From positions 38,700 to 102,699 of the forward strand of contig CASEME010000010.1 in NCBI GenBank assembly GCA_949289125.1: a stretch of DNA of 64,000 nucleotides, read 5' to 3'. Numbering within the stretch: position 1 is the first letter of the stretch; the number at the start of each line of letters is the position of its first letter. The stretch comes from an uncultured Eubacteriales bacterium. GTDB lineage: Bacteria > Bacillota > Clostridia > Christensenellales > CAG-314. Below, piece by piece: positions 8,445-28,267 of this stretch. The translations under genes and the position numbers were made by a program. A model generated the notes under the pieces. That model did no database searches. It saw nothing but the letters and a program-made list of their open reading frames with translations, and was not told the origin of the DNA.

Positions 8445-9356
8445 TTACGCCAACGCTATTGCATTGACAGTGATATTGTAGATATTGATTGCAACTATAG
8501 ACAACAGTGCAACATTGTACACAATAAGCAGTGCTATGTTGCTGACACGTTTGTTGATGATAGTACCGATAAAACCGCCTATCACTGCGCCTGCCACCAT
8601 CAGTGCCACCAACACCCACGGCATTTCTATTGTTGCAAACGTGCCCGATATTGCTGTGCGCACAATTTTTGCCGTCTGCGAAAAAACAATAAGTACCAAC
8701 GAGTTGATGGTTGCGCTCTTCATATCCATACGGAACACAAAGCACAGTATTGCTATGTTGATAGGTCCGCCACCTATGCCGATAAAGGAAGACACCATAC
8801 CAAGCGCAAGACCAATGGGAATAATAATTACAGGGTTGTTTGCCAAACGCTTTTTGGTAGCCACAGGCACATTGCCCTCTTGAGCATTGTCGCTGTGTTG
8901 AGTGTCACTTTGCTCGTCGTAAGTTTCTTTGCTCTCTGCTTGTTGTTCAGCTTCTTGTTTGGCTTGCTGTTTTTTGCGAATAACGTTCATATACAGCAAC
9001 ACAAACGCCAAAAGCAATATCAGTGCCACACCTTGCGCCACTTTAACTACGTTGTCGTTACTGTTGCTTTGTATGTAATTAAATATAAGGTCGCCTGCAA
9101 TACCACCCAAAATTGCGCCTATGCCCAAAAATACCGTTGTCTTTTTGTCAAAAGGCGTTTTGTTGATAGCGTGCTTAATAACCGATGTTACCGCCATAGA
9201 CAACACCGAAAAGGCCGACAGCATACCTATTACTACCGAATCAAACTGACTTACCGCGTCCAATACCGGTTTTATTATTACACCGCCGCCAATACCGCTT
9301 ATTGCACCCACTATGGACGCACCAAGCGCAACCAAAAAATATAGTGCTTCGAGCAT
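8445..9356 (-). CDS. TauE/SafE (TSUP) sulfite/organosulfonate exporter family protein
   Basis: Duplicated GIGGG motifs (GAISGIGGGVIIKP and SSFIGIGGGP) with a polar Q/E-rich linker. Start at MLEALY after RBS AAGGAG. Confidence 0.9.
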   Translation of the reverse strand: MLEALYFLVALGASIVGAISGIGGGVIIKPVLDAVSQFDSVVIGMLSAFSVLSMAVTSVIKHAINKTPFDKKTTVFLGIGAILGGIAGDLIFNYIQSNSNDNVVKVAQGVALILLLAFVLLYMNVIRKKQQAKQEAEQQAESKETYDEQSDTQHSDNAQEGNVPVATKKRLANNPVIIIPIGLALGMVSSFIGIGGGPINIAILCFVFRMDMKSATINSLVLIVFSQTAKIVRTAISGTFATIEMPWVLVALMVAGAVIGGFIGTIINKRVSNIALLIVYNVALLSIVAINIYNITVNAIALA

Positions 9357-9414
9357 ATCTTTTCTCCTTAGTTCAATTATACCTTGCCAAATTGCAAAGT
9401 GAAAGAGTAGAAGG

Positions 9415-9428
9415 TGCAAACGTTTGCA
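9415..9428. promoter_or_regulatory. LacI-type operator upstream of tauE
   Basis: Perfect palindrome TGCAAACGTTTGCA. Confidence 0.75.
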
Positions 9429-9591
9429 TTGACCACATATACAATAAGTTGCCGATATTGCTAATTGAACAAAGTTTTCCCTCTTGTGCAAGTACATACT
9501 GCACCAATTTTTTAATTATTGCTGACTTAAGATAAGCATAATGGTAAAATTGAAATACATACAACAACTATTGTTTAAGGAGTATATAAGT

Positions 9592-10317
9592 ATGAATACC
9601 ACACGTAAAGTAACAGCTATACTTTGTGTTATCGCATTAGCAATGACAACAGTATTTGCCCTTGTTGCGTGCAGTCCGTCCGAATATTACAACATCAAAG
9701 CAGGCGTTGTGTACAGATTTGGCGAACAAAAACTGATGATTGAGATAGACAGTCAAAGCGAACAACAAACAACCTTTCTCAACACTATTGCACCAAGCGA
9801 CATTACTTTTGGCGACAAAGCCTACGGACGCACTGCAAAGTCCATCACTTTTGTATCGGACACCGCTATAGAAGTAGTTGTTGAAGGCATTGTAGATGCA
9901 AGTGCTACGGGCGAGTATGGCAAAGTAACAATAAGTGCCAACGCTATGGCAAACAAGGCAATATCCTACTGCTATGTAAATGTATACACACCTCAGATAA
10001 CAAGCAAGGGCTCATCTTCTACAAACCCATCACGCTACAGCTCTACTCTTACACTTGGCGCAGGATACTTTGTACAAGCCAACATCAATTTGAACAACAT
10101 CACTCTTACTAACGGCACAGGTACATTGACAGCAACGTACAATGAGGACGGCACGGTAACCGTGAGAGTCACCGACTTTGTTGCTACCACAGCAGGTCAA
10201 AGCCCCGTAGTAATGTTTGCCGAAAATACAACTACTATCGGCTCACCTTTCAGTATTACTGTAGGTGTATTCAACTTTTTCAATTTTGACTACGACGTAT
10301 CGTCCAGCATTTCCTGA
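9592..10317 (+). CDS. Lipoprotein of unknown function (Thr/Ser-rich, likely beta-rich)
   Basis: Signal peptide with LVAC lipobox, RBS AAGGAG, downstream terminator. Confidence 0.8.
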   Translation: MNTTRKVTAILCVIALAMTTVFALVACSPSEYYNIKAGVVYRFGEQKLMIEIDSQSEQQTTFLNTIAPSDITFGDKAYGRTAKSITFVSDTAIEVVVEGIVDASATGEYGKVTISANAMANKAISYCYVNVYTPQITSKGSSSTNPSRYSSTLTLGAGYFVQANINLNNITLTNGTGTLTATYNEDGTVTVRVTDFVATTAGQSPVVMFAENTTTIGSPFSITVGVFNFFNFDYDVSSSIS

Positions 10318-10410
10318 TACTGATATGCTAACTTAGGCTAAACGCACATTGTTGCAACCACATATACGTCATTGTCCATAATAAGACGTTGCAACACTTA
10401 CAAACACCCG

Positions 10411-10441
10411 CTACCGCCCACACAAAGGCGGTAGTTTTTTT
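10411..10441 (+). terminator. Intrinsic terminator after the lipoprotein gene
   Basis: CTACCGCC/GGCGGTAG stem plus T7. Confidence 0.8.
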
Positions 10442-10450
10442 GCAAAAATA

Positions 10451-10504
10451 TTCAATCGTTTGCATAGCAGTAGGATAGACAATACACACAAACTGAGCTA
10501 CAAT
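10451..10504 (+). promoter_or_regulatory. LacI-type operator plus sigma-A promoter of pfk-nagA
   Basis: TTCAATCGTTTGCA (10451-10464), then TAGACA (10476), 17 bp, TACAAT (10499). Confidence 0.65.
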
Positions 10505-10606: not shown

Positions 10607-11758
10607 ATGGCTAATCTGTTAATTGCTCACGGCGGAGGTCCTACGGCGGTTATCAACGCATCTCTTGCAGGTGCTATAGAGCAAGCACGCAAAGCAGGCT
10701 TTAAGGGCAAGATACTGGCACCACGTTTTGGCAGTACAGGACTACTTAACGAGGACTTTATTGACCTTACCGACATCACCGACACACAGTTGAAATTGCT
10801 GAAGTGCACCCCCGGTTCGGCAATCGGTACTTCCCGACACCCGTTGGAAGAACCCGAATACCGCAAGATAGTTGCCAATCTCAACAAGCACGACATCACA
10901 TACGTGCTGTTTACAGGTGGCAACGGCTCTATGGACACCATAGGCAATATTTACAAATACCGTCAAGGCGAGCTGTACTGCGCAGGTATCCCCAAGACAG
11001 TGGACAACGACATTGCAGTGACCGACCACGCCCCGGGATATGCCAGCAATGCAAAATACATGGCAAGGACAGTATTTGACTGCGCAAAGGACGTAATGGG
11101 ACTGCCTATACACGTATCAGTAATAGAGGCTATGGGACGCAATACAGGTTGGTTGACAGCGGCAAGCGCACTTGCACGCACACGTGACAGCGTAGCACCA
11201 CACATATTGTGCTTCCCCGAAATACCCTTTGACGACAACAAATTTTTGTCCGATGTGGAAAAAGCTCGCAAAAAGTACGGCGGAGTAATAGTAGTAGCCA
11301 GCGAAGGCTTAAAATACGCCGACGGCACACCTATCGTACCGCCCACATTGACAGTAGGCAGAGCTACATACTTTGGCGACGTATCGGCACACCTTGCAAC
11401 GCTTATACAAAAAAATCTTGGTATCAAGGCACGCAGTGAAAAGCCCGGACTTATCGGTAGATGTTGCAGTGAATTGACAAGTAGCGTAGACGTACAAGAA
11501 GCCGTACTTATGGGCGCAACAGCTTGTCAGGCAGTACTCGACAAGCAAAACGGCGTAATGGCAGGTCTTGAACGAGTATCCACCAAGCCTTATGTAGTAC
11601 GTCCGATACTTATCCCCATTGAGCAAGTAATGTTGACAGAAAAGACATTGCCCAGAGAATTTATCAACAAAGAGGGCAACGACGTCACCAAAGCATTTAT
11701 AGAGTGGGCAAGACCGCTTGTAGGCAAAATGCCCAAACAATTCAGCTACATGAAGTAA
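10607..11758 (+). CDS. pfkA: PfkA-family 6-phosphofructokinase paralog (PPi-PFK-like clade, ATP-type Gly signature)
   Basis: GGGPTAVINAS, GTSR, GGNGSMDT, PKTVDND, EAMGRNTGWL, SEG. Confidence 0.88.
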   Translation: MANLLIAHGGGPTAVINASLAGAIEQARKAGFKGKILAPRFGSTGLLNEDFIDLTDITDTQLKLLKCTPGSAIGTSRHPLEEPEYRKIVANLNKHDITYVLFTGGNGSMDTIGNIYKYRQGELYCAGIPKTVDNDIAVTDHAPGYASNAKYMARTVFDCAKDVMGLPIHVSVIEAMGRNTGWLTAASALARTRDSVAPHILCFPEIPFDDNKFLSDVEKARKKYGGVIVVASEGLKYADGTPIVPPTLTVGRATYFGDVSAHLATLIQKNLGIKARSEKPGLIGRCCSELTSSVDVQEAVLMGATACQAVLDKQNGVMAGLERVSTKPYVVRPILIPIEQVMLTEKTLPREFINKEGNDVTKAFIEWARPLVGKMPKQFSYMK

Positions 11759-11840
11759 CAACACTATTGACACTACACACTACGGCGGACCAAGGTACAC
11801 CACCTTTCCGCCGTAAATAATAACAACAAGGAGATAAATT

Positions 11841-12944
11841 ATGAGATTGTACACCAATGCAACTGCGCTGATTGACGGCGAGTTGGTACTTACAGACATA
11901 TTGACAGATAAAGGCAAAATAACAAAAATAGGCAAAAAGATAAAGTGCCCACAAGGTGCCGAAGTGTTGGACTATACAGGCAAATACATACTGCCTGCGC
12001 TTATCGACATACACACGCACGGCGCAGACGGCTACGACTTCAACTTGGCGTCGTTGGAACAGATGCTCAAAGTAATAGACTTTTACCGTAAGCACGGAGT
12101 AGGTAGCGTGTTGCCCACAGTTATGACGGACACGGACGAAACAATGTGCAATCAGTTAGCAACGGTAGCGCAACTTGCAAAACTTTGCTCCGAAGTAAAA
12201 GGCATACACTTGGAAGGACCTTTTCTTGCGCCCGACTACAAAGGTGCAATGCCCTTAGAACTGTTGCAACTGCCCTCTGTAGAGAAGTTTAAGATGTATC
12301 AAAAGGCAGCCAACGGGCTTATAAAAGTAGTGACAATATCGCCCGAACTGAAAGGCGCACAACAATTTGCAAAAGAAGTGTCGGCAATGGGCGTTGTAGT
12401 GTCACTTGGACACAGTGGCGCAGAGTATGAGGAAGCCAATGCCTGCGTCAAGGCAGGCGCAAAGAGCTTTACGCACACGTTCAATGCAATGAAACTGCCC
12501 CACCAACATCACGCCAACATAGGCGGTTGCGCTATGCTGTCCGACAACTACTGCGAACTTATCTGCGACGGCAGACACGTTTGCCCCGATATGGTGCGCT
12601 TTATGCTCAAGATGAAAGGCATTGAGCGCATAGTGTTGGTAACAGACAGTATGATGGCAGCAGGTCTGCCCGACGGTCAGTACAAATTAGGCGTCAACAA
12701 CGTAACAGTAAAAGAGGGTGACGCATTGATAACTGAAACAGGCGTAAGAGCAGGCAGTACTTTGACTGCCGACAATGCTTTTGCCAACTTTGTGCAGTTT
12801 ACAGATTTGCCCGTCAATGTAGCAATAAAAGCAATGACGGAAAACCCTGCAAAGCTACTTGGCATTTACGACCGTTGCGGTAGTATTGCCGAAGGCAAAG
12901 ACGCAGACTTTCTTGTGTTGGACGCATCGCATCTCGGCAAGTAG
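11841..12944 (+). CDS. nagA: N-acetylglucosamine-6-phosphate deacetylase family protein
   Basis: IDIHTHG, HLEGPF, LGHS, HTFNAM, DGRHV, LVTDSM, NPA, G.IAEGKDAD. Confidence 0.93.
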   Translation: MRLYTNATALIDGELVLTDILTDKGKITKIGKKIKCPQGAEVLDYTGKYILPALIDIHTHGADGYDFNLASLEQMLKVIDFYRKHGVGSVLPTVMTDTDETMCNQLATVAQLAKLCSEVKGIHLEGPFLAPDYKGAMPLELLQLPSVEKFKMYQKAANGLIKVVTISPELKGAQQFAKEVSAMGVVVSLGHSGAEYEEANACVKAGAKSFTHTFNAMKLPHQHHANIGGCAMLSDNYCELICDGRHVCPDMVRFMLKMKGIERIVLVTDSMMAAGLPDGQYKLGVNNVTVKEGDALITETGVRAGSTLTADNAFANFVQFTDLPVNVAIKAMTENPAKLLGIYDRCGSIAEGKDADFLVLDASHLGK

Positions 12945-13279
12945 TCAATGGACTTATACACAGTAAGCAAATGGCAAAACACACAAACAGCATTGCGCAT
13001 TGTTAATTGTAAACAGAAGGCAAACAATAAGCACAACACATAGTCTTTTGCAACATTGTATTGGACAGTACTCTACACGATAGCTTGGCTACACTGCTAA
13101 TTGGTGCACATAACCATATAACAACAATTACAAAATATAATACCGACATAGCGCTATCACTATGTCGGTATTTGTTTTGTCTATCACTATTACAAAGCCA
13201 TTGTACAAAATGTTATTATCCCACACTGTTGCAACTGCTATGCACTTTTGCTATCAGCAATGTAATTTTTGTCGAGTAC

Positions 13280-13528
13280 TTAGTTTGTATCGTGTTGCTC
13301 TTGGTCACTGTTTTGTTGTGTGTTATCTGTTGTATTGCTATCAACAGGTTTCTTTTGGTCGGGCAAAAATATGGCAAGAAATATTGCTATCCAAAGCGTA
13401 CAGTTGACTATGTCCGAAACAGTGTGAAAAGCATAATTACGAGTTGCGAAGTATGCAATACTAAAAGCAATATCTACAACTAACAGCAGTATTGCCACAA
13501 TTTTCATAATAAATTTTGCCTTTTTCAT
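13280..13528 (-). CDS. Small 2-TM membrane protein, hypothetical
   Basis: RBS AGAGGG, two hydrophobic helices and a polar tail. Confidence 0.6.
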   Translation of the reverse strand: MKKAKFIMKIVAILLLVVDIAFSIAYFATRNYAFHTVSDIVNCTLWIAIFLAIFLPDQKKPVDSNTTDNTQQNSDQEQHDTN

Positions 13529-13768
13529 AACTTATCCCCTCTTATAGTAATAATACCAACTATATGCAAAACATTATATTTTCATCGTTATTATAAAATT
13601 TGATTACCTTACTGTCAATACTAAAGTTTTGCTACGCACAGTTAAACATAGCAAAAAACATTATAAATATTGCTGTTTTTATCTTTCATCAGCAAATATT
13701 CATACACAAAAGCGGTCTACAAAATGTGATAAAATACAAAATATGTCAGGCATTTGCAACAAATTCAC

Positions 13769-13952
13769 TTTTCCACAACGATATTTTACTTTTGGACAAC
13801 TTTTAGCTTTATTTTGGCATATACTATGCCTCAAATACCCTCATTTTGTGGATAACTATACACTTATCCACAGAGTTATCCACAATTAACGAAAAAATTG
13901 TGCAAATGTTTTCAGTAACAGTTGCTTGACTTTTACCATTGATTGTGCATAA
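13769..13952. promoter_or_regulatory. DnaA-box cluster outside oriC
   Basis: Perfect boxes TGTGGATAA (13847-13855), TTATCCACA (13864-13872) and TTATCCACA (13876-13884). One-mismatch boxes at 13769-13777 and 13944-13952. Confidence 0.85.
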
Positions 13953-14292
13953 CTTCATTTTTGCGTGTTTTTTGAGCTGTTTGTGCGCAAAACAAAACGC
14001 ACTTTTTTTCACGAGATTTACTTGTGGTCAAAAGTGCGTCTATTTTTGTTAAAAAGTAATTGTTGTGGCAATATCTTTGCCGTATTGGCAACAACTATAC
14101 CGTATGCAACTACTACACTGATTGTTACAAAATATAGTTGTTATTCTGCTGTAAGTTTTGCAACCGACATTTTAGCTGAGGCAATCAACATACTGCTACA
14201 CAAGCAATCGGTCGCGACTGCTACAATGTCGTTGTCGTGGTTTTCGCTTGGCGCACCAATATGCCACTTATAAGCAAGCTACACTATTGCAA

Positions 14293-15567
14293 TTACTTTT
14301 TGAGTATCTTGTACATATTGCGTTTGTAGTTTTCTACGCCGTCCTGATTGAAAGGATTGACGTGTATATAGTTGGCTGACATATACACTGCAAACAGGAA
14401 GAAGTAATACAATTCGCCCAACAACTCCTCTGTAGGTTCGGGGCATACAAATTCCATACAGGGCACACCGTCATTGTAATGCGCCGAAAAACTGCCGTCA
14501 TACACTGCCTGATTGACTTTGTCGTACTGCATACCGTTGAGGTAATCAAAGCCGTCCTGCTCGTCCGACTGCGGTATCACTACCTTAGTAGGCTTAAAGC
14601 ACTTCAAGTACGTTTCCATAATAAAGCGTCTGCCTTGCTGAACGTACTGACCTATTGCGTGCAAATCTTCGCTGAAACAGTAGTAGTCGGGATAGATGCA
14701 CTCTTGTATCTTACCTTCGGTCTCGCCAAACTCCTGCAACCACCAACGCGCAAAGTGCTCGAGTTCGGGTTCAAACACAACCATACTTTCCACCTGAAAA
14801 CCTTTGCGGAAAAGCAAATTGCGCGCCACAGCGTATCTTACGGCAGGGTTTTTGTCTATTGGCATAGATTTGAGCAGTTGTTCTGTTTTGCGTGCGCTCT
14901 CTACAAGTTTGTCAATGTCTATACCAGCAACAGCCGCAGGCAACAGACCTACAGGCGTCAACATACAGTATCTGCCGCCTACTTCCTCAGGGAAAGGCAG
15001 GAAAGTGTAGCCGTATTTGTCTGCCATCTCTTTGAGGTTGTCGTGCGTTACACTGCCGCATACCGTCACACGGTCAACATACTTGTCGCCATAACGCTGT
15101 TTGAGATACTGACGGAACATACGGAAAGTAAGCCCTGGCTCTATTGTGCGGAAGTCTTTTGCAATGACGTCTATTGCCACGCTTCTGCCACCTATCTTGT
15201 CAAACACACGTTGCAAAGCCGTTGCCGACAAATTGTTGCCCGCCCAGATAATTTCCGGACAATCGGGATGGTCGTACTTAAAGCACTCCACAGCAGCAAG
15301 TGAGCCTCTATTACTACCGCCTATGCCAATTACTACCAATACTTCGGCTTGTTTTGCTATTTTGCGAGCTACTTGTTTAATTTTGGCTAACATACTGTCG
15401 TTGGCATTGTTGTCCACCACAAACCAACCTTTGCGGTCTACATCGCCGTACTTGCACTGATAACTGTCCTCAAACAACTGCTTGTTTTTCAAAATTTCGT
15501 TAGTTATTTCCTGAGACGTAACGTATTTGTCTATATACTTTTCGTTAAATTGCAATTTTAGCTTCAT
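14293..15567 (-). CDS. pgi: Glucose-6-phosphate isomerase family paralog (altered phosphate site)
   Basis: IGIGGS, VGGRY, GETEGK, DLHAIGQ, NPFNQDGVENYK. The canonical SKSGTT reads AKDFRT. Confidence 0.88.
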   Translation of the reverse strand: MKLKLQFNEKYIDKYVTSQEITNEILKNKQLFEDSYQCKYGDVDRKGWFVVDNNANDSMLAKIKQVARKIAKQAEVLVVIGIGGSNRGSLAAVECFKYDHPDCPEIIWAGNNLSATALQRVFDKIGGRSVAIDVIAKDFRTIEPGLTFRMFRQYLKQRYGDKYVDRVTVCGSVTHDNLKEMADKYGYTFLPFPEEVGGRYCMLTPVGLLPAAVAGIDIDKLVESARKTEQLLKSMPIDKNPAVRYAVARNLLFRKGFQVESMVVFEPELEHFARWWLQEFGETEGKIQECIYPDYYCFSEDLHAIGQYVQQGRRFIMETYLKCFKPTKVVIPQSDEQDGFDYLNGMQYDKVNQAVYDGSFSAHYNDGVPCMEFVCPEPTEELLGELYYFFLFAVYMSANYIHVNPFNQDGVENYKRNMYKILKK

Positions 15568-19652: not shown

Positions 19653-20945
19653 TTATTTTCTGTCTGCAAGGTACTCTTCGTAAACCTGACTCCAAATATA
19701 GTTTTTGAGTTTCAAAAATTCGTCTGACATTTTTGTTGCCTGATTTCTGGGGTGAGGTATATTGATGTCCACTATCTCTTTGATACGTCCGGGACGGGCG
19801 CTCATGATGACTACTCTTGACGCCAATATGATTGCTTCTTCTATGTCGTGGGTAATGAACAGACATGTTTTGCGTTCTTTTTCCCACATTTCGATAAGTT
19901 CGGTCTGCAACTGTGTACGAGTCTGAGCGTCCAATGCACCAAACGGTTCATCCAAAAGCAATATTTCGGGATTGACTGCATAAGCTCTTGCAAGTGCAAC
20001 ACGCTGTTTCATACCACCGGACAACTCTTTGGGATAGTGTTTCTCAAACTGTTCAAGTTGTACCATCTTTAGATATTTGTCTACTATAGTGTTAATCTCA
20101 ACACGAGTGTATCTTCTTGACGGCTTGGGCGGTTCGCCACGGAAGTAAACTTCCACCATCTGCTCTATTTCTTCGTGCGTATGCCCTTGCTTTCTCAACT
20201 TTTTGCGAAGTTTGCCTTCGGTGCTCTTAATCCATTGCTCACGAGTGATTGGAGCATAATAAGTAACAGGTCTTTCGCCACTGAAGTAGTTTTCCACTTC
20301 GGCTTTGATTTCTTCTTCTGTCTTGCCTTCTTTTTTGAGTTGAGCAACAAGCTTTTTCTCGTCACGTTTGCGCCAGTCGCCCATTGCCATACGGTCAATG
20401 TAAGCATCGGGTTGTTCGCCGCTAAAATACTTGTCTACTTCGGCTTTGATTTCTTCCTCGGTCTTGCCTTGCTTTCTGAGCTGAGCAACCAACTTTGCTT
20501 CGTCACGTTTGCGCCACTCGTCAACGGGAAGTTTTACCTTTTCAGTGATAGCAAGACGGGACAATTTGAGACCAAATTCTATGTTTTTGCGTACTGTCAG
20601 CCACGGGAACAATGCGTATTGCTGGAACACAACGCCACGCTCCGAACCGGTGTCTTCTACCAATTTGCCATTGCAGAATACTTGTCCGCTTGTCGCTCTC
20701 AACAAACCTGCTATAATATTGAGTATTGTGGACTTACCGCAACCGGACGGTCCTACAATACAGATAAACTCGTTTTCGTATATATCGAGGTTCATACCGT
20801 TCAAAGCTATTACTTTGCCATTACGACCATCATACTCTTTGTATACGTTGTCAATTTTTACTTTTACTTTGCGCTGTTCCTGAGGTACTGTTGTGGAAGT
20901 AACTTCTTTTTCAGTTACAGCTGTTGTTTTTGTTGTGTTAGCCAT
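19653..20945 (-). CDS. NitT/TauT ABC ATP-binding protein with internal 3 x 47 aa repeat insertion
   Basis: GPSGCGKST, VFQQYALFPWLTV, YPKELSGGMKQR, LLDEPFGALDAQTR, ITHDIEEA. Confidence 0.92.
   Translation of the reverse strand: MANTTKTTAVTEKEVTSTTVPQEQRKVKVKIDNVYKEYDGRNGKVIALNGMNLDIYENEFICIVGPSGCGKSTILNIIAGLLRATSGQVFCNGKLVEDTGSERGVVFQQYALFPWLTVRKNIEFGLKLSRLAITEKVKLPVDEWRKRDEAKLVAQLRKQGKTEEEIKAEVDKYFSGEQPDAYIDRMAMGDWRKRDEKKLVAQLKKEGKTEEEIKAEVENYFSGERPVTYYAPITREQWIKSTEGKLRKKLRKQGHTHEEIEQMVEVYFRGEPPKPSRRYTRVEINTIVDKYLKMVQLEQFEKHYPKELSGGMKQRVALARAYAVNPEILLLDEPFGALDAQTRTQLQTELIEMWEKERKTCLFITHDIEEAIILASRVVIMSARPGRIKEIVDINIPHPRNQATKMSDEFLKLKNYIWSQVYEEYLADRK
20120..20520 (-). repeat. Three in-frame tandem repeats with 141 bp period
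   Basis: W-R-K-R-D-E..LVAQL.K.GKTEEEIKAEV..YFSGE.P twice, plus a diverged third copy. Equivalent Trp codons at 20232, 20373 and 20514. Confidence 0.9.
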
Positions 20946-20947: not shown

Positions 20948-21739
20948 TTATATCTCCCTCTTATCTTGCCAGCCTGTCAGTTTCTTTTCCAACAGCTCGA
21001 CCACCAACTGCAATAGTAGACCAATAATACCTATTACCAAAATACCCATAAGCACTACGTCCATCTTGAAATATTGGCTTTGTGTCTGAATAAGCACGCC
21101 CAAGCCTTTTGCAGCACCTGTCATCTCTGCTGCAATAAGTGTTGTCAAAGAGGACGAAAGACCAAGTTTCATAGCAGTAATGATAAACGGTGTGGACGCA
21201 GGGATAACAATACGTACAAACATATTAAGGTCGTTTGCGCCCAATACTTTACCTGCTTTGATAAGTGTTTCGTCAACATTAAGCACGCCTTGATAAATGG
21301 TAATTACCATTGTAAGGAAAGCTGCAATGAAGATAACTACGACTTTTGCTGTTTCACCAACGCCTGCTGCTGCAACAACCAAAGGTATGTATGCAATAGG
21401 CGGGATATTTTTGATAAAGCTGATCCATGGTCCGATAAGTGAACGGACAGGTTTGTACCAACCCATCAAAAATGCTACGGGAAGCGATGCAAAAAATGCA
21501 ATTATAAAGCCAAGCAAAACTCTTTGCAGACTCATACGGGTGTGTACCCAAAGCGTGCCTGCTACTATGTATTCCCAAGCAGCCTTCAATACCAACCAAG
21601 GCGAGGAAAATACCATGCCGCCCGTCTTTGTAAGAGAGATAAGCTCCCAAACAACAAGTGCGAGTGCTAAGGACGCCAGTCCCCATACCCATTTTTCGTA
21701 TTTTTTCCAAATACTTTTCTTTGTCAATGATTTTTTCAA
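20948..21739 (-). CDS. NitT/TauT ABC permease (TauC/SsuC-like)
   Basis: SLQRVLLG, IPPIAYIP, LIKAGKVLGA, LIAAEM.GA..GLG. TTG start after RBS AGGAGG. Confidence 0.92.
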   Translation of the reverse strand: MKKSLTKKSIWKKYEKWVWGLASLALALVVWELISLTKTGGMVFSSPWLVLKAAWEYIVAGTLWVHTRMSLQRVLLGFIIAFFASLPVAFLMGWYKPVRSLIGPWISFIKNIPPIAYIPLVVAAAGVGETAKVVVIFIAAFLTMVITIYQGVLNVDETLIKAGKVLGANDLNMFVRIVIPASTPFIITAMKLGLSSSLTTLIAAEMTGAAKGLGVLIQTQSQYFKMDVVLMGILVIGIIGLLLQLVVELLEKKLTGWQDKREI

Positions 21740-21780: not shown

Positions 21781-22650
21781 TTATGTGCTGTTGTCGGTGT
21801 GCGAAGCCGACTGTTTTTTTTCGTGGAAATGTTGATAAATAATATTGAGTATGACAGCAACAATTACCACGCTACAACCTATCAAACCCAATGTTCCAGG
21901 CAGTTCGCCTGCAAATATCGCAACCCATATCGGATTGAGTATTGCTTCAAGAAGACTTATTATCGATGCGGACAGCGAATTACATCGCTCGATACCTATC
22001 GAAAAAAGTATGTATGGAATACCTAATTGCACCACGCCAAGTCCTACAAGTGCCATTGTGGACGTAACGTTCATTGCCGTATAGTCTACCCCAAAATAGA
22101 ACGGTATGCCCACTATTACATTGAGCATAAAGCCGTACATACAAGCTGCTGCGGGCTGTACTTTTTCCATACCATTGACAAAAAACACACATGCAAAGGC
22201 TATACCCGACACAATAGCCAATATATTGCCCAACAATCCTCCGCCGCTCATCTGATCGGCAAATACAGTCACTATGCCGCCTATTGCCAAAAGCATTATT
22301 AGTATTTGTACTATGCTGGGCAACTTTCGGTTTTTTACCGCTGTAAATATCATTACAAATATAGGAGCTGTATACTGCAACACTATTGCATTGGCAGACG
22401 TTGTATATTGATTTGCCAATACAAACATATTGGTTGTTACACAAACACCTATTGCTCCCAATACTATTGGAATGTTTGGACGTGGAAACCTGCGCAAATA
22501 CAATGCCAAACATAATACTGCCAAAACAGACCGAAGTCCGTTCATAGCAATACCGTCCATATTAGGTATAAGTTTGATAAAAATACCGCCACTGCTCCAC
22601 ATAATAGCGGCAAAAACGATATACAACTCTCCTCTTACCGACTTTTCCAT
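21781..22650 (-). CDS. EamA/DMT family transporter
   Basis: 10 TM pattern, ANAIVLQYTAP, SLLEAILNPIW. Confidence 0.9.
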   Translation of the reverse strand: MEKSVRGELYIVFAAIMWSSGGIFIKLIPNMDGIAMNGLRSVLAVLCLALYLRRFPRPNIPIVLGAIGVCVTTNMFVLANQYTTSANAIVLQYTAPIFVMIFTAVKNRKLPSIVQILIMLLAIGGIVTVFADQMSGGGLLGNILAIVSGIAFACVFFVNGMEKVQPAAACMYGFMLNVIVGIPFYFGVDYTAMNVTSTMALVGLGVVQLGIPYILFSIGIERCNSLSASIISLLEAILNPIWVAIFAGELPGTLGLIGCSVVIVAVILNIIYQHFHEKKQSASHTDNST

Positions 22651-22760: not shown

Positions 22761-23549
22761 TTACAACAATTCTTTTGTAAGACCTATACATGCGTCGGGG
22801 TGACCTTGCAACAGACTTGCAGGGAAGTACATAGACTTCTCTCCCAATACGGCACGTCTTACTACCGACTTGTGCCAATCACGGAACACAAACAAACGTA
22901 CTTTCTTTGCGTTAAGTATTTGTTTCATACCGATAGTTACGCAATAATCGGGCATAAGGTAGTATGCTCCGTCAAATTCGTTGAGTCCGTTGACTACTTT
23001 TGTTTCGCGCGATATCTTCTGAACACGCACGGACAAATCACAAAATTGTTTTTCGGTAATTTTGTCTTCAGCCTCGGGCGGTTCGTTGAAAGCCATGTGA
23101 CCGTTGATACCTATACCGCCAAAGCATACGTCCACGCCGCCGTGTTTAGCTATTACTTCCTCTATCACCACTCTGTTGGTAGGTGAAGGGAAAATACGCT
23201 GGCACTCAGGCATAATCAAACGTTCGTATATTTTGCCGTACACTTCTTCGTGCATAAACTTGCGAAAACTCAATTTGTTGTCAGTACCGATAAGCTCTGT
23301 TTCGCTTGCCATATATTCGTCCATATTGATAAATGTAACGTCTTTGAGGCTTATCGATTGGCTGTTGACCTTTTCCACAAAGTACGGATACTGTCCGACA
23401 GGTCCTACAGGTACAATAAACAGAGTTTTTTTGCCTGCTTTGTTGTTGGCTACGATGGTATCCACCATCATATCTGCCATTGCTTCAAACGCCTGTTGTT
23501 TGTTGTCATAAACTTTTACAGGTATTTTACCTTTAGTTACATCGCACAT
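22761..23549 (-). CDS. nagB: Glucosamine-6-phosphate deaminase (NagB)-like protein, copy 1
   Basis: NMDEY, GGIGINGHMAFNEP, TIGMKQIL.AKK, FPASLLQGHP. P-loop reads PVGPVGQY. Confidence 0.83.
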   Translation of the reverse strand: MCDVTKGKIPVKVYDNKQQAFEAMADMMVDTIVANNKAGKKTLFIVPVGPVGQYPYFVEKVNSQSISLKDVTFINMDEYMASETELIGTDNKLSFRKFMHEEVYGKIYERLIMPECQRIFPSPTNRVVIEEVIAKHGGVDVCFGGIGINGHMAFNEPPEAEDKITEKQFCDLSVRVQKISRETKVVNGLNEFDGAYYLMPDYCVTIGMKQILNAKKVRLFVFRDWHKSVVRRAVLGEKSMYFPASLLQGHPDACIGLTKELL

Positions 23550-23585: not shown

Positions 23586-24722
23586 TTACTTTGTTTTGTA
23601 TTGTTTTGCGCACTGCTCCATGCTGTCATGTGCAAAAGCAAATGCGTCGCCCACTGTACCAAAATATACTGTGGCAGTCAAAGCTATTTCTTTGACGGCA
23701 TTTTGCATCAGTTGAACGTATTTTTTTACCTTTTCGTCTTTGTAATTGCCTGTGACTATCTGGTCGATATAGGGCGCAAGGTAGTTGCGGTAGTCAAAGT
23801 CCGACTTGTTGGCTTGCATACGTTGCCACACCTCGTCCTTTTGGTATTGGGTGTTGCTTACAAACAACTCGCGGAAGTTGCGTGTTGTGGCAAGTCTTAT
23901 GTCGGTATCGATGTTAATTTTGGATATTCCGCAAGGAATAACGCTTTGCAACTGCTCTACAGGTACGCCTTTGCCACCCACTGCGCCGCCCAATGCGTTG
24001 ATTTCTGCAACGATATATTGCGGAACAAGGGAAGAACCGTGCGATACAAGCGCACCTTCGATATGCTCGTGACGCATATTTTCCATTGACGCTATTACTA
24101 TTTCGTTGCGTAGTTTTACGTGGTCGCCCTTTACTGCGCCGTGCTTAGTGCCATATGACAATGCCAAACTGTCGCAACCTGTCTTTTTAAAAAAGTCTAC
24201 AACTGTCATCGGGTTGGTGTAACAGCTGTCCTCTGCAAATACGTCGTCCTCTGTGCCACCAAGCACGCCAAGCTCGCCTTCTACTGACACGCCGTACTTG
24301 TGAGCGTACTTTACTACTTCACGCGTCAACTCTACGTTGTCCTCGTAGGGGTGAGCCGAACCGTCTATCATAACGGAAGAAAAGCCTGCGTCTATCACTG
24401 CTTTGACACTTTCAAATGTTCTGCCGTGATCCAAATGCAACACTACCGGTATTTTTGTTTGCTCTGCCAACTTTCTTACGTGGTCTGCAATGCGCTTTGC
24501 ACCCAACTTCTTTTGGTCGAGTGTACTTTTCAAAAACTCTGCATTGCCACCCAAGTAACCTGTGCCTGGTTCGGCAACCTGTATTATTACACCGCTACGC
24601 AGTTGTTCGTGCGCCTCTATCAGGGCGTCTGCCTGACACAAAGCATTTACGTTGAATGCGCCGTGTGCAATTTTGTTGGCTGTTGCATACCGCAAAAGCG
24701 GTTTCATAGGTATGTATGACAT
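23586..24722 (-). CDS. fba: Class II (Zn) ketose-bisphosphate aldolase
   Basis: GAFNV, LHLDHG, SVMIDGS, VEGELG, GTKHG, HGSS, KINIDTD. Confidence 0.92.
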   Translation of the reverse strand: MSYIPMKPLLRYATANKIAHGAFNVNALCQADALIEAHEQLRSGVIIQVAEPGTGYLGGNAEFLKSTLDQKKLGAKRIADHVRKLAEQTKIPVVLHLDHGRTFESVKAVIDAGFSSVMIDGSAHPYEDNVELTREVVKYAHKYGVSVEGELGVLGGTEDDVFAEDSCYTNPMTVVDFFKKTGCDSLALSYGTKHGAVKGDHVKLRNEIVIASMENMRHEHIEGALVSHGSSLVPQYIVAEINALGGAVGGKGVPVEQLQSVIPCGISKINIDTDIRLATTRNFRELFVSNTQYQKDEVWQRMQANKSDFDYRNYLAPYIDQIVTGNYKDEKVKKYVQLMQNAVKEIALTATVYFGTVGDAFAFAHDSMEQCAKQYKTK

Positions 24723-24779: not shown

Positions 24780-26219
24780 CTATTCTTTATCGTCCGCCAT
24801 ACACAAGTGCACGCTTGCCGTTGTGTATGCTTTGGGCATTGCCAATATTTTGGGATTTTTGCCAACGTACTTCTGAGCGTCTTTCAATGCTTCTTCTATA
24901 GTTGCACGTGTCTTCATACCCATTGCTCTTGCATATCCGGGAGCTTTGGCGCCCACAATATATATGGCAGATGTATTCATCTCAGCTATATGACCGCAAC
25001 TTATCATGGAAAAACCGTGATAGGGGTGATAGCCGTGTTCAAATCTGTATTTGCGGATATATTCCTTATCCTGTGCCAACTTCTCGCCATACTTAGCTAC
25101 ATCTGGCAGGATATTGCCTTCCTTTTGGAAAGTCTCAAATATCTCTCTGTATGAGGGGAACTCCTCGTCGTGGAACCAACCGTCGCACACTGACGCTGCA
25201 ATAATGACGCAATTTTCCTTCATAACACGCTTGTGGCGTATTATCTGTGCGGACAGTGCCTGCATCATAAGTATGGGGTTGGTGCCCATGCCGTCGCCGT
25301 AGTGGAACTTAATTGGCATACCCACAATCATAACGTCGTACTTTTTCTTAGCCCACTTAACATAAGTGCGCTTGTCTGCAACTTCCCAGCTCAATGGTTG
25401 AATAAGTGTTGCGTCTCCTGTAAATACGGCAATCTGTCTTTGCTTGCTGTCCAACACTGCATCGCAGGTAAAGAACTTTTTGCCCATGCACTTTTCCATG
25501 TGCTGACCTATAGCGTCAAACTTCTGACGCATAAGGCTCTTGCTGCTTACAGGTACAAAGTCCTGTCTGTGCATTACTTCGGGGGTGTGGTGAGCAGATA
25601 TACACTGCCAGTTGGTAATACCTGTTGCGCAATGCTTGTATCCGCCCGAGTAACCGCCGTAAGGGTTGCCCAAAGTGTGACCAATAAGTACTGCCAAGTC
25701 ACAATCGTACACTTGCTTGTTCATAACAACGTGACTGTGAAACTTTTCTTCGTATCCCAAGTCTACAAGGTTGTCGTGGTCTTCGCTGTCGTGATTGGCA
25801 ATTTGTCCTGTTGGGTAAAACTCGTCAAAAATTTTGTCGCCCAACAGACTGCGTATTTCTTCTTCGGTATTTTTGCGATGCAAGCCGTTGCTGCACAAAA
25901 GGTGAATATCTTTCTTTTCAACGCCTGCTTTGAGACATTCGTCAATAATAATAGGAATACTTGTTTTGCGGTGACTATCTTCCTGTGTGCCGCCTTTTAC
26001 TCGGTCGGGGAAGATAATTACTACTTTGCTACCCTTTTTTACTTGTTGAGAAATGGGCTTTATTCCTATCGGGTTGAGTATAGATTGCCTTGTTGCCTCG
26101 TATTTGTCTTCTAATTGTGGAGGATCGGGCACTGTTTCTCCTGGAATAAATACATCGGTATTTTTATCAGGAAGATTGGCTTCTACAAACTCTTTACCGT
26201 ATTCAAATGTCACTTTCAT
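24780..26219 (-). CDS. larA: LarA (DUF2088) nickel-pincer-dependent enzyme family protein
   Basis: FEYG, NPIG, NGLHR, NHD, GYSGGYK, AHH. Confidence 0.85.
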   Translation of the reverse strand: MKVTFEYGKEFVEANLPDKNTDVFIPGETVPDPPQLEDKYEATRQSILNPIGIKPISQQVKKGSKVVIIFPDRVKGGTQEDSHRKTSIPIIIDECLKAGVEKKDIHLLCSNGLHRKNTEEEIRSLLGDKIFDEFYPTGQIANHDSEDHDNLVDLGYEEKFHSHVVMNKQVYDCDLAVLIGHTLGNPYGGYSGGYKHCATGITNWQCISAHHTPEVMHRQDFVPVSSKSLMRQKFDAIGQHMEKCMGKKFFTCDAVLDSKQRQIAVFTGDATLIQPLSWEVADKRTYVKWAKKKYDVMIVGMPIKFHYGDGMGTNPILMMQALSAQIIRHKRVMKENCVIIAASVCDGWFHDEEFPSYREIFETFQKEGNILPDVAKYGEKLAQDKEYIRKYRFEHGYHPYHGFSMISCGHIAEMNTSAIYIVGAKAPGYARAMGMKTRATIEEALKDAQKYVGKNPKILAMPKAYTTASVHLCMADDKE

Positions 26220-27025
26220 ATTTTTGCTCCTTTTTTGTAGGTTGCTACAATGTCTTCAAAGTCGTTGAGATAAAAACCGAAGTCTTTGCCAAAACGTGTC
26301 AAAGCTATCAATCCGCCGTCCAATGCCTCAATACTTCCCAGCATCTCTGCATTGTCCTTTTTCAGTCCGCCGCCGTACACTACAGGGCAGTTGACGATAG
26401 TTTTGACAAACTTTGTAATGTCTTCTATGTATTCTCTGTCGGGTGGAACTTTGCCCACGCCTATTGCCCATACAGGCTCGTAAGCTATGGTAACTTTGCT
26501 GAGGTCCACGTCTTTAAGACCTACTTCCAACTGATGTCTTAGTACTTCGTACTTGCGAGGTTGTTCTTCACTCTTTTCGCCTATGCAGTACAACACTTCC
26601 ATACCGCAGTTGATTGCCGCCTTTATCTCGCAGTTGAGTATAATATTGACGTCACCCTGTCCGCCACCCAACTGTAGCAGCTCGTTTTTGTCGTTACGCT
26701 CCTCGCAGTGTCCGATAATTGCGTCGGTGACACCCAATGCACTCATGGACTTTGCTGTACGCAAGGTGGTAAATGCGCCAAAGTTGCCGCCTTTTTCCAC
26801 ATCCTTACGATACACTCCCTGACAGCCTATACGCACTTTTTTGCTGCTTGCTACAGCCGTCATAACGTGCGCTTCGGGGAAAAATACCGTATAGCGACAT
26901 CCGTCTAATTTTTCAAGTGCGCTTACAATATCTTTAGACCATTGCGCACCCTTACTAAGGTCATTGATACCGCCCCAATCTCTCGGTACATCAAACCGTT
27001 TGAGGTTGAGATAAATACGTTTCAT
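26216..27025 (-). CDS. tpiA: Divergent triose-phosphate isomerase family protein
   Basis: NLK, GAFT, IIGHCEER, CIGE, IAYEPVWAIG, YGGG. Lacks VGGAS, reading IALTRF instead. Confidence 0.85.
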   Translation of the reverse strand: MKRIYLNLKRFDVPRDWGGINDLSKGAQWSKDIVSALEKLDGCRYTVFFPEAHVMTAVASSKKVRIGCQGVYRKDVEKGGNFGAFTTLRTAKSMSALGVTDAIIGHCEERNDKNELLQLGGGQGDVNIILNCEIKAAINCGMEVLYCIGEKSEEQPRKYEVLRHQLEVGLKDVDLSKVTIAYEPVWAIGVGKVPPDREYIEDITKFVKTIVNCPVVYGGGLKKDNAEMLGSIEALDGGLIALTRFGKDFGFYLNDFEDIVATYKKGAKI

Positions 27026-27083
27026 CAAAGATTATCTCCTCATTTTTGTAGGTACAGAAAAATAGCTTTTTTCTTCTAATCAC

Positions 27084-27177
27084 ACTATACGGTCAAAGGT
27101 GCAAATAGTAAAGACTGATTTTGTGCAATCGTTTGCATACAGGGGTATTGAAAAGTGCGCAATTTTAAGACTATAAT
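27084..27177. promoter_or_regulatory. Divergent promoters with a central LacI-type operator
   Basis: TGCAATCGTTTGCA at 27124-27137. Minus strand TTTACT-17-TATAGT (27112-27084). Plus strand TTGAAA-18-TATAAT (27148-27177). Confidence 0.7.
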
Positions 27178-27250
27178 CTCTCTATAAATAGTCAACAATA
27201 GCAAAAGTATCGTCAGATATTCGTACAGTTTTATTTAGGAGAAAGACACA

Positions 27251-28267
27251 ATGACGTCAATTACGTTAAAAGAATTAGCGCAAAAACTTGGTGTGTCGCC
27301 TTCGACTATCTCAAGGGTACTCAACAATAAGACATACAGTGCAAGCAAGGAGCTGAAAGAAAAGATATTGCAGGCAGTAAGCGAGTACGGCTATACTCCC
27401 AACTCTGCCGCTAAGGACTTGCGCACCAATGCACTAAAAATCGAACTTCAACTTACCGTATCGTGCGTATTTGCGCGCAGTACTTCCAAAGATAACAACG
27501 CCTTTTTTGAAAGTTTGGCACAGCAAGTGAAGATAAGCATACTCAATGAGGGTATGAAATTGGGCTACACCGTGTATGTGGACGAGATAAGCTGTTTGGG
27601 AGAGGACTTTTTTGCACTTACCAAAGGTCACGGACTTATTGTACTTGGCAGATTTGCTTCCAACGAAACGGAGTTTTTGAAAAATTATAAGCGCAACATT
27701 GTGGGTATTACCGTCAACAGATGGGACACGCCATACGACCAAGTAATAGTAGAAGGTAGCAACGCGGCAAAAATTGCACTCGACTATCTGTGCAGTCTCA
27801 ACCATCATCGCATAGCTTACATGGGCGAATGTTACAAAGAACAGCGCTACAATGCGTATATAAAGTATATAGAAGAAAATTCGGTACACTCGGACGCATC
27901 GCTTATTTTCAACTGTCAGATGACGGAAAAAGCCGCTTACGACAAAGGTATAGAAATTGCCGACAAATTGGTAGAAAAAGCTACTGCAGTGCTGTGTGGC
28001 AACGATATTACCGCTTTGGAGCTGTTGCGTGCATTGAGTAAAAAAGGTTACATGGTGCCTAAGGATATATCGGTAATAGGTATAGACGACATAGACCAGT
28101 CGCAGGAAAGTGTTCCGCCACTCACTACCGTGCATATACCTAAGCACGAGATGTGCTACTTTGCAGTCAAACTGCTTAAGTCACGTATGTCGAGACAACA
28201 TTCGCTACCTGTTCAACTCATTTTGCCGGCAACACTTACCATACGAGAGAGTGTACGCAAGGTGTAA
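27251..28267 (+). CDS. LacI-family transcriptional regulator
   Basis: TLKELAQKLGVSPSTISRVLN..GYTPNSAAKDL, NDITA, VPKDISVIGIDD, PPLTTV. Confidence 0.96.
   Translation: MTSITLKELAQKLGVSPSTISRVLNNKTYSASKELKEKILQAVSEYGYTPNSAAKDLRTNALKIELQLTVSCVFARSTSKDNNAFFESLAQQVKISILNEGMKLGYTVYVDEISCLGEDFFALTKGHGLIVLGRFASNETEFLKNYKRNIVGITVNRWDTPYDQVIVEGSNAAKIALDYLCSLNHHRIAYMGECYKEQRYNAYIKYIEENSVHSDASLIFNCQMTEKAAYDKGIEIADKLVEKATAVLCGNDITALELLRALSKKGYMVPKDISVIGIDDIDQSQESVPPLTTVHIPKHEMCYFAVKLLKSRMSRQHSLPVQLILPATLTIRESVRKV

Follow-up and report, generated by a model that had tools for sequence, protein, structure and literature searches.

What does a bacterium with a 1.33 Mb genome use a second set of glycolytic and amino-sugar enzymes for? 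The question is raised by a gene cluster in a 64,000-nucleotide stretch (the window; contig C10, 38700–102699) from the assembly of an uncultured Eubacteriales bacterium (GCA_949289125.1; 29 contigs, 92% complete). A sequence-only reading had proposed that the genes at 8445–28267 form a parallel glycolysis for an amino sugar carrying an anionic group, here called X, at C6. We find support for a second, diverged set of enzymes of the Embden–Meyerhof–Parnas (EMP) and Nag type alongside the genome's standard copies, accompanied by anion-type importers and exporters and without a C6 kinase, as that reading had held. The cluster is a conserved module that has spread horizontally across phyla, and its conserved core is a triose-phosphate isomerase (TIM)-like gene followed by a LarA-like gene. 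As to function, we tentatively favour the catabolism of hexoses and hexosamines with sulfate or sulfonate at C6, the sulfur oxyanion being exported.

The TIM-like/LarA-like core and its spread

Ordinary copies of phosphoglucose isomerase (PGI; contig C18), PfkA-type phosphofructokinase (PFK; C18), a second PFK (C16), fructose-bisphosphate aldolase (FBA; C29), TIM (C2) and NagB (C19) lie elsewhere in the source genome. The expectation that canonical copies would exist outside the cluster therefore holds for these enzymes but not for NagA; a second nagA was not found in the genome and the cluster copy is the only one. The cluster paralogs share only 25–38% identity with the genome's own standard copies. 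The PFK-like protein is 38% identical to the second PFK and 25% to the PfkA type, the PGI-like protein is 25% identical to the genome's PGI, and NagB-like protein 1 is 34.5% identical to NagB-like protein 2 and 24% to the standard NagB. The PGI-like, FBA-like and TIM-like proteins all fail the cut-offs of the housekeeping equivalog models.

We then asked how widely the gene set occurs. A LarA-like gene is present in 7 of 400 sampled genomes of the phylum (E ≤ 1e-60), and a metagenome scan with a LarA alignment returned 493 relatives, 80 loci being retained. The resulting neighbourhood set comprises 89 sources (the window, 8 genome loci and the 80 metagenome loci) and 916 open reading frames (ORFs). 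LarA-like ORFs were called in 84 of these sources, TIM-like in 63, PFK-like in 32, LacI in 25 and aldolase in 23, with NitT-type binding proteins in 20, NagA-like in 18, NagB-like in 18 and PGI-like in 16, all of which are lower bounds as many contigs are short. Where at least 6 kb is available on both sides (20 loci), TIM-like genes are found in 17, PFK-like in 12, aldolase in 12 and TauE or half-size chromate-transporter (CHR) genes in 9. Scanning with the PGI-like protein showed that two Spirochaete genomes (L016 and L017) share this gene set, at 44–69% identity per protein, as does an uncultured Acholeplasmatales genome, the source of L015, the nearest related locus. These loci bear out the suggestion that the cluster is conserved. 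NagB-like protein 2 is 46–52% identical to its copies in 17 other loci.

The part upstream of the core varies. It may consist of NagA, NagB, PGI and a NitT/TauT importer, as in the window; of CUT1 sugar importers with a phosphomannose isomerase (PMI)-like cupin; of TTT or TRAP importers with DHDPS or HpcH aldolases and dehydrogenases; or of RpiB-like and ribulose-phosphate-epimerase-like genes. At L028 5484–8264 (genome G033), a TctABC/DHDPS/SDR variant of the TIM-like/LarA-like locus, arylsulfotransferase-family, GcvH-like and glutaredoxin-like genes are also neighbours.

The TIM-like and LarA-like genes had been regarded as accessories, a view not borne out by gene order. In 54 of the 69 loci having at least 1 kb upstream, a TIM-like gene precedes the LarA-like gene by no more than 700 bp. 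All 61 TIM-like/LarA-like pairs are on the same strand, with TIM-like first in 60, and spacing is tight: stop and start overlap by 4 nt in 19 pairs, as in the window (26216–26219), and gaps of 0–30 nt separate another 20. Fusions were sought with the TIM-like query among longer proteins only, giving six matches. Protein P0001 (682 aa; six member sequences, on a 51 kb contig) is a natural in-frame fusion of a PFK-like N-terminal and a TIM-like C-terminal domain, both of the cluster type. P0005 (TauE plus TIM) and P0002 were rejected as gene-calling artefacts in which intergenic sequence had apparently been translated, leaving adjacency only, and P0004, whose TIM N terminus is missing, was disregarded. 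Whether of class II, DHDPS type or HpcH type, the aldolases release an aldehyde fragment, and we infer that the TIM-like and LarA-like proteins would process it.

Judged by its sequence, the LarA-like protein belongs to the single-histidine LarA subfamily of LarA_Sp (Streptococcus plurextorum; 9q2u) and LarA_Bw (Blautia wexlerae; 9q3j), to which it is 67–70% identical, the match running across residues 1–477. Classical LarA and the malate racemase Mar2 match it with at most 72 bits. Across 45 aligned sequences, that of the window included, H114, N185, K195, H210/H211, H306, Y307 and H401 do not vary. In LarA_Sp the single catalytic histidine is His115, Asn185 stands in for the second one, Lys195 forms the thioamide tether of the cofactor and a histidine binds Ni (PMC12611868); the invariant residues match these four features and also the residues described there as surrounding the ligand. 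The same paper assigns no function to LarA_Sp or LarA_Bw in its main text and reports that LarA_Sp is without lactate racemase activity (PMC12611868, Gatreddi et al. 2025). LarA_Sp bears a covalent ligand of 316.5 Da, which absorbs at 340 nm and extends to the active-site entrance, and which its authors modelled as a phosphorylated aldose, C9H19O10P (318.07) (PMC12611868). As a side lead, sulfoquinovosyl-glycerol, C9H18O10S (318.0621), has nearly the same mass as that formula (318.0716), the two differing by 9.5 mDa.

The neighbourhoods of LarA_Sp (9q2u/9q3k) and LarA_Bw (9q3j) also hold glycolysis-like genes; section 2.6 of the paper names glucose-6-phosphate isomerase, pyrophosphate-dependent PFK, TIM, FBA, fructose bisphosphatase, glucosamine-6-phosphate isomerase and aldose 1-epimerase (PMC12611868). 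The association of LarA with glycolysis-like neighbours is thus already in print, and the pathway was not found in the literature searched. The main text of that paper has no mention of the strict TIM-to-LarA order, of TauE/CHR or the NitT/TauT importer, of the sulfatase/maturase link described below or of remodelled anion sites.

Genes for the nickel-pincer cofactor are present in the source genome, where larE (C13:80328–81035; TIGR00268, 207.6 bits), larB (C13:81441–81833; PF00731) and larC (C13:81845–83086; PF01969, 453 bits) are adjacent. The set sits at the end of contig C13. The phylum scan found a single LarA homolog in this genome, and the cluster's LarA-like protein appears to be the only client of larEBC. 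An assignment to the gluconate-epimerase type was rejected, the LarAH14/15/16 NCBIfam model scoring 220 bits against a cut-off of 740.

Pfam and NCBIfam were used to assign the genes at 8445–29427, listed here with bit scores against family cut-offs. The gene content read at 8445–28267 is confirmed, and the motif strings quoted for it are all present in the translations.

8445–9497, minus strand: predicted TauE/SafE-family anion exporter (PF01925, 123.8 bits)
9541–10317, plus strand: predicted lipoprotein without a family (no Pfam or NCBIfam match; signal peptide with Cys in the translation)
10607–11758, plus strand: PFK-like kinase of the PRK14072 type (NF010675, 388.5 bits; cut-off 273)
11841–12944, plus strand: NagA-like deacetylase (TIGR00221, 276.3 bits; cut-off 225.65, passed)
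14293–15567, minus strand: PGI-like isomerase (NF010697, 403.8 bits, under the cut-off of 443)
15641–17497, minus strand: DUF3604 protein, probable metal hydrolase, accessory gene (PF12228, 55.1 bits across 37 residues)
17624–18436, minus strand: NagB-like protein 1, the more diverged copy (TIGR00502, 66.7 bits; cut-off 236.9, failed)
18504–19523, minus strand: NitT/TauT-family lipoprotein binding protein (TIGR01728 SsuA_fam, 144.9; cut-off 163.5)
19653–20945, minus strand: ABC ATPase with an insertion of 3 × 47 residues (PF00005)
20948–21739, minus strand: ABC permease, TauC/SsuC-like (PF00528; NF007545, 146.9 bits; cut-off 342)
21781–22650, minus strand: EamA-family transporter, accessory gene (PF00892)
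22761–23549, minus strand: NagB-like protein 2 (TIGR00502, 91.7 bits; cut-off 236.9, failed)
23586–24722, minus strand: diverged class II aldolase (PF01116, 259 bits; TIGR01859, 251.2; cut-off 343)
24780–26219, minus strand: single-histidine LarA-like nickel-pincer enzyme, core gene (E 7.7e-205 to 9q2u, 7.2e-200 to 9q3j)
26216–27028, minus strand: TIM-like isomerase or lyase, core gene (PF00121, 111.8 bits; best NCBIfam TIM model NF000728, 90.1; cut-off 255)
27251–28267, plus strand: LacI-family regulator (PF00356 and PF13377)
28564–29427, minus strand: aldose 1-epimerase-like protein, beyond the range first read (PF01263, 59.4 bits)

Anion sites of the six enzymes

Each paralog was aligned with the genome's own standard copy and 12–57 subfamily members from the loci. 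Rows were kept by identity to the window protein and by length (over 0.8 times the median), leaving 57 of 63 for TIM, 27 of 32 for PFK, 12 of 24 for FBA, 15 of 17 for PGI, 15 of 18 for NagB-like and 17 of 18 for NagA. The 12 FBA copies left out are 26–39% identical and tagatose-aldolase-like. Unless a paper is cited, residue roles in the TIM, PGI, NagB, PFK and FBA sites are those we take them to have. By these alignments the anion sites are clearly remodelled in four of the six enzymes (TIM, PGI, NagB and NagA), and the changes are subfamily-wide rather than specific to this genome. The claim that distal-phosphate sites differ in every enzyme hence stands for these four and falls for PFK and FBA, which keep their 6-phosphate arginines.

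In the NagA-like proteins the invariant phosphate-binding arginine is replaced by histidine in 17 of 17 members, HHREPG of the Bacillus subtilis enzyme (2VHL) aligning with HQHHAN. In Mycobacterium marinum NagA the substitution R225A abolishes activity, and standard NagAs accept N-acetylglucosamine (GlcNAc)-6-sulfate at a 7-fold higher Km but not GlcNAc, a C6 anion being required (PMC6016474). The TGTSP loop of NagB becomes PVG--PvGQ in the 15 NagB-like sequences, the equivalent of Arg172 is lost and the region of Lys208 reads WH(R/K). TKSGAT of the genome's own PGI is AKDFRT in the window (consensus AKdF.T in the 15 PGI-like sequences), the catalytic Arg, Glu, His and Lys being kept. The 57 TIM-like sequences aligned keep the loop-6 lid as well as the catalytic residues Asn, Lys, His and Glu (NLKRF, IGHsEER, YEP.WAIGPGK), but their phosphate-gripper loops are rebuilt. 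Loop 7 changes from YGGS to YGGG(LK) and loop 8 from GGAS to ALTR(F), and the loops gain a new conserved Lys and Arg.

The kinase and the aldolase have changed less at these positions. The 27 PFK-like sequences retain the arginines of MGR, KaRs and G.GR, which we take to be the three 6-phosphate binders. In GHxQR they lose His and Gln alone; as this His is likewise missing from the second PFK of the genome, the altered motif, earlier read as a changed distal-phosphate site, is not diagnostic. In the 12 FBA-like sequences QxS becomes Q(g/V)A (QVA in the window) beside a conserved 7-residue insertion, and the Ser49 equivalent is lost. Arg276, which by alignment offset is the equivalent of Helicobacter pylori Arg259, is kept, as are the DTDIR arginine and that of FD(p/Y)R (FDYR in the window), which aligns with the partner-subunit Arg280.

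The retained PFK-like arginines and the Arg259 and Arg280 equivalents of FBA-like would suit substrates that are ordinary phosphate esters. The cluster would then be a route for rarer sugar phosphates (N-acetylgalactosamine (GalNAc)/tagatose of the Aga type, or tetrose or heptose phosphates). RpiB-like and ribulose-phosphate-3-epimerase-like genes directly upstream of TIM-like in some loci fit such a route, TIM and RpiB paralogs acting together in the Brucella erythritol pathway, and the NagA-like protein, sole NagA of the genome, passes its TIGR00221 cut-off. The TIM-like and LarA-like proteins would be an isomerase and an epimerase on phosphosugars, as speculated by the LarA_Sp authors, whose modelled ligand is a phosphorylated aldose (PMC12611868). 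Such a route needs a source of 6-phosphate, however, and none is apparent: Pfam and NCBIfam find no phosphotransferase system (PTS), sugar kinase or sulfatase in the cluster, in agreement with the sequence-only reading, and no PTS EIIC was found across the 92% complete genome. It is also difficult to reconcile with the rebuilt TIM gripper loops and with replacement, in every NagA-like member, of an arginine whose loss inactivates the standard enzyme (R225A; PMC6016474). The AgaI model NF007291 scores 47.2 and 80.4 on the two NagB-like proteins (cut-off 271), and AgaI, GatY and KbaY models all fall far under their cut-offs on the cluster proteins. Moreover, the linkage to exporters and to a sulfatase and maturase would be left unexplained. 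We regard phosphate as an unlikely, though credible, identity for X.

Transport, sulfur links and surroundings of the cluster

Exporters were detected with hidden Markov models built from Pfam-confirmed copies, and their placement in genomes was determined by Pfam scans. TauE is found in 17 loci and half-size CHR pairs in 8–10, never both in one locus. Of the 10 genomes holding a LarA-like gene, 7 have an exporter of one or the other type no more than 3 kb away from it: TauE in G350 (two copies), G137, G372, G347 and G401, and a CHR pair in G221 and G404. In the source genome (G000) TauE is 15.4 kb from the LarA-like gene. Each genome holds 1–10 TauE and CHR matches in 1.3–6.1 Mb, hence the probability of such adjacency by chance is roughly a few percent, G372 and G347 being of the same genus and not independent. 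Among the 38 informative loci, metagenomes included, with at least 3 kb of flank, 12 have an exporter.

The nearest solved relative of the binding protein is the taurine-binding TauA 6ssy (E 1.7e-15, 60 bits), and the protein scores 76.8 bits on the TauA model TIGR01729, whose cut-off is 304. Importers near the core are mostly of anion types (NitT/TauT, TTT and TRAP), with CUT1 sugar importers in 6 of the 38 loci. TTT and TRAP importers recur near the core with HpcH and DHDPS aldolases, 2-hydroxyacid dehydrogenases, dehydrogenases of the tartronate-semialdehyde-reductase type and xylose-isomerase-like barrels, company that would suit a carboxylate as X. The cluster would then break down sugar acids such as 2-acetamido uronic acids, with tartronate semialdehyde as the three-carbon fragment, the TIM-like protein would resemble hydroxypyruvate isomerase and the LarA-like protein would act on the hydroxyl beside the carboxylate. 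All characterised LarA homologs act on 2-hydroxy acids, sugar acids included (gluconate 2-epimerases), but most of the substrate-surrounding residues of other LarAs are lost in this subfamily, and LarA_Sp is without lactate racemase activity (PMC12611868). The PFK and FBA arginines are placed for a tetrahedral oxyanion two atoms further out, and neither a TauE/CHR exporter nor a sulfatase and maturase would be needed. We consider a carboxylate improbable.

Sulfur chemistry is indicated by sulfatase genes. In L096 one strand encodes a signal-less (cytoplasmic) sulfatase, an aldolase, fucose-isomerase-like, NagA-like, PMI-like, PFK-like, TIM-like and LarA-like proteins, two TauE proteins and an anaerobic sulfatase maturase, one opposite-strand gene intervening between LarA-like and the first TauE. 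In L112 a signal-less sulfatase lies three genes upstream of TIM-like. These are the 2 of 89 related loci with a sulfatase within the same gene array, L096 alone also having the maturase. The source genome has a comparable arrangement at C18:14540–19470, where a CHR pair and a divergent LysR regulator stand together with an anaerobic sulfatase maturase (radical-SAM/SPASM) and a sulfatase of the Cys type, which has a CSPSR motif and an SGSH_C domain but no signal peptide. Evidently this genome desulfates an imported compound, and the position of the CHR pair beside the sulfatase and maturase hints that CHR pairs export sulfate. The earlier proposal of a sulfated sugar used without a sulfatase accordingly stands for the cluster but not for the genome, nor for the two related loci. 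A second CHR pair, at C18:175827–180466, is accompanied by a second TauE gene in two halves with one in-frame TGA between them, either split or interrupted; genes for a radical-SAM protein and a class V aminotransferase are close by. In a survey of 131 of the 283 unlabelled ORFs within 6 kb, namely the nearest ones of 160–700 aa, the GH31 and Sulfatase families were not among the top 25 families.

X could also be a hydroxyl, on neutral GlcNAc, glucosamine (GlcN), glucose or fructose, these sugars being either desulfated first by a cytoplasmic sulfatase or imported as such. The PFK-like protein would give fructose-1-phosphate, the aldolase would yield dihydroxyacetone phosphate (DHAP) and glyceraldehyde, and the TIM-like and LarA-like proteins would convert the free triose to lactate. 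The sulfatases of L096, L112 and the source genome are consistent with such a route, as are the CUT1 importers in 6 of 38 loci and, at the active sites, the loss of anion-binding Arg, Ser and Thr from NagA-like, NagB-like and PGI-like, the last of which gains an Asp. Standard NagA is, however, inactive on GlcNAc (PMC6016474), importers are mostly of anion types, the 6-phosphate arginines are conserved in PFK-like and FBA-like, and the TIM-like loops have acquired conserved Lys and Arg. A neutral substrate seems to us likewise improbable.

Some genes of the cluster are peculiar to the window or nearly so. The lipoprotein ORF 9541–10317 is present in the window only, among the related loci compared, and its identification as a NagB is ruled out. 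The EamA gene likewise occurs in 1 of the 38 informative loci, the window. The DUF3604 protein has no relative in the PDB and a homolog (24% identity) in just one other locus, L085; none of the mentions of DUF3604 found in a literature search describes a function. The aldose 1-epimerase-like gene is a probable cluster member, as homologs (25–29% identity) adjoin the LarA-like gene in L072, L085 and L095 and lie in the same array in L119. The class II aldolase passes the looser cbbA subfamily model (228.3 against 215.6).

The ATPase is unusual in carrying three tandem 47-residue repeats within its nucleotide-binding domain (residues 144–284 of 430; window 20094–20516). They start at residues 144, 191 and 238, with the unit WRKRDE.KLVAQL.K.GKTEEEIKAEV..YFSGE.P. 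Homologs at 55% identity or more in related loci (n = 15) include 12 of 262–288 aa, a 112-aa fragment and one of 358 aa. Despite the repeats in the protein, TRF found no tandem repeat in the DNA over 8000–29500. In the 1.35 kb (12945–14292) between the convergent NagA-like and PGI-like genes, the only ORFs are two without a family, 140 and 102 aa long; tblastn with the 916 neighbourhood ORFs found no gene remnant there, and Rfam had no match over 8000–32000. Housekeeping genes (gltX, radC, dnaA and dnaN) flank the cluster. dnaA (minus strand) and dnaN (plus strand) diverge at window 35887–38812 and the GC skew changes sign at about 38–40 kb, which probably puts the replication origin no more than ~10 kb from the cluster. 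Further along, window 58–62 kb is a low-GC stretch (0.27–0.34).

A proposed route for C6-anionic sugars

The observations cover which genes are present, how they are conserved and ordered, the site changes shared across the subfamilies, the linkage to exporters and the cofactor genes; the identity of X and every reaction of the route that follows are inferred. X is most likely a sulfur oxyanion, either a 6-O-sulfate ester (GlcNAc-6-sulfate or GlcN-6-sulfate) or a 6-sulfonate. The NitT/TauT-type ABC system would import a sugar that is already anionic, and hence no C6 kinase would be needed. The NagA-like protein would take off the acetyl group, NagB-like would deaminate and isomerise the product to the 6-X ketose, PGI-like would admit the 6-X aldose and PFK-like would phosphorylate C1. 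The class II aldolase would then give DHAP, which would join ordinary glycolysis, and glyceraldehyde-3-X. The TIM-like protein would form the enediolate of this three-carbon fragment, from which X may be lost by beta-elimination, as phosphate is in methylglyoxal formation. In ordinary TIM the phosphate grip prevents phosphate elimination; we place the departure of X at the TIM-like protein because the enediolate machinery is kept but the anion grip is rebuilt. The LarA-like protein, a nickel-pincer hydride shuttle with a single histidine, would carry out a redox-neutral conversion, plausibly of methylglyoxal hydrate to lactate, and TauE, or the CHR pair in other genomes, would export sulfite or sulfate.

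The last steps can be put more precisely, as a long shot: the TIM-like protein may be a lyase rather than an isomerase, one that converts glyceraldehyde-3-sulfate or sulfolactaldehyde to methylglyoxal, and the LarA-like protein a nickel-pincer 'glyoxalase' that forms one lactate enantiomer via bound pyruvate. In the second half of this reaction bound pyruvate would become lactate with the help of one histidine, as in ordinary LarA enzymes. Aldehyde oxidation and reduction by a nickel-pincer enzyme were shown in 2026, LarA-family reactions having so far been confined to racemisation and epimerisation (PMC13524815).

As to which oxyanion, the sulfatase/maturase links and the retained PFK-like and FBA-like arginines favour sulfate, whereas the family of the binding protein and the habit of TauE to stand beside desulfonating enzymes favour sulfonate. 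In the Xsc–TauE, SuyAB–SuyZ and CuyA–CuyZ operons the exporter gene is linked to a sulfite-releasing enzyme. The cluster may resemble these operons in its linked exporter, and methylglyoxal synthase and glyoxalase III in an enediolate elimination followed by an internal hydride shift. The likeness would be one of analogy and not of homology, as the cluster has no Xsc, SuyAB, CuyA, methylglyoxal synthase or glyoxalase III.

A number of observations weigh against a C6 sulfur oxyanion. The PGI-like anion loop gains an Asp, and the 6-phosphate arginines of PFK-like and FBA-like leave room for a phosphate substrate. The known sulfonate aldolase SqiA has lost the Arg280 equivalent that the cluster aldolase keeps, which argues against sulfonate, and no sulfoquinovose genes (GH31 sulfoquinovosidase, YihS or YihV) were seen. 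Exporter linkage is missing in 26 of the 38 informative loci, many with short flanks, and in genomes G033 and G402 there is no TauE or CHR on the LarA-like contig. The sulfatases of L096, L112 and the source genome could strip sulfate before the cluster enzymes act, leaving neutral sugars. HpcH and DHDPS aldolases, 2-hydroxyacid and beta-hydroxyacid dehydrogenases and xylose-isomerase-like barrels would fit carboxylate sugar acids equally well. Finally, the 316.5 Da ligand of LarA_Sp exceeds the size of a three-carbon substrate (PMC12611868). Together, the phosphate, carboxylate and neutral alternatives are about as probable as a sulfur oxyanion.

The proposed route for sulfated or sulfonated sugars has parallels among known pathways. 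It resembles sulfo-EMP (YihS/V/T/U) and sulfo-EMP2 (SqvD, SqiK, SqiA) in its sequence of isomerase, 1-kinase and aldolase, leading to DHAP and a three-carbon anionic aldehyde, and in having an exporter; its aldolase shares class II with SqiA. It differs in having a PGI-like protein rather than YihS/SqvD and a PFK-family rather than a PfkB kinase, and the cluster adds NagA, NagB, TIM-like and LarA-like. No PfkB-family kinase, YihS/SqvD, sulfolactaldehyde reductase or dehydrogenase, or sulfoquinovosidase is among its Pfam matches. The cluster aldolase matches Giardia FBA with 176.6 bits but chains 8q57 and 8q58, which we take to be SqiA, with only 120.8 and 114. In SqiA the partner-subunit Arg is replaced by Ala and the sulfonate is held by backbone and a His (PMC10665668). 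With different enzyme families, no sulfolactaldehyde reductase or dehydrogenase and an aldolase not of the SqiA type, identification as sulfo-EMP or sulfo-EMP2 was rejected. The NagA/NagB and Aga (GalNAc/tagatose) pathways likewise bring a deacetylase and a deaminase-isomerase together in one cluster with a kinase and a class II aldolase. The cluster differs from them in lacking a PTS, in NagB-like proteins far under the NagB and AgaI cut-offs and in the replaced phosphate Arg of NagA, and for these reasons the Nag and Aga pathways were also rejected. The view that the cluster matches no characterised pathway hence survives for sulfo-EMP and sulfo-EMP2, but must be qualified by the LarA/glycolysis-like link, which is in print without a function (PMC12611868). 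A description of the pathway was not found among the papers listed by full-text literature searches, whose coverage omits most subscription journals, and 'nickel', 'triose' and 'TauE' do not occur in a review of sulfoquinovose catabolism from January 2026.

For the single-histidine LarA subfamily there are two solved structures and the authors' guess of 'carbohydrate metabolism' (PMC12611868). The cluster provides a testable frame: a fixed TIM-like partner, a linked oxyanion exporter, an occasional sulfatase and maturase, and an upstream route with consistently altered anion sites. A genome of 1.33 Mb keeps its 17 genes as well as larEBC, and the module is therefore arguably important to the organism. 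It could be an EMP-like catabolic route, with new enzymology if the TIM-like/LarA-like chemistry proves right. The TIM-like/LarA-like pair would then be a redox-neutral, oxygen-free and sulfatase-free means of removing sulfur, allowing fermenters to use all six carbons of 6-sulfo sugars, and would provide the first LarA-family reaction beyond racemisation or epimerisation. If the substrate is 6-sulfated or 6-sulfonated, anaerobes of gut and sediment would have a new way of feeding on the sugars of mucin, glycosaminoglycans or plant sulfolipid, with release of inorganic sulfur. It would, if true, bear on hydrogen sulfide production in the gut and on the sulfur cycle, and would extend nickel-pincer chemistry beyond racemases.

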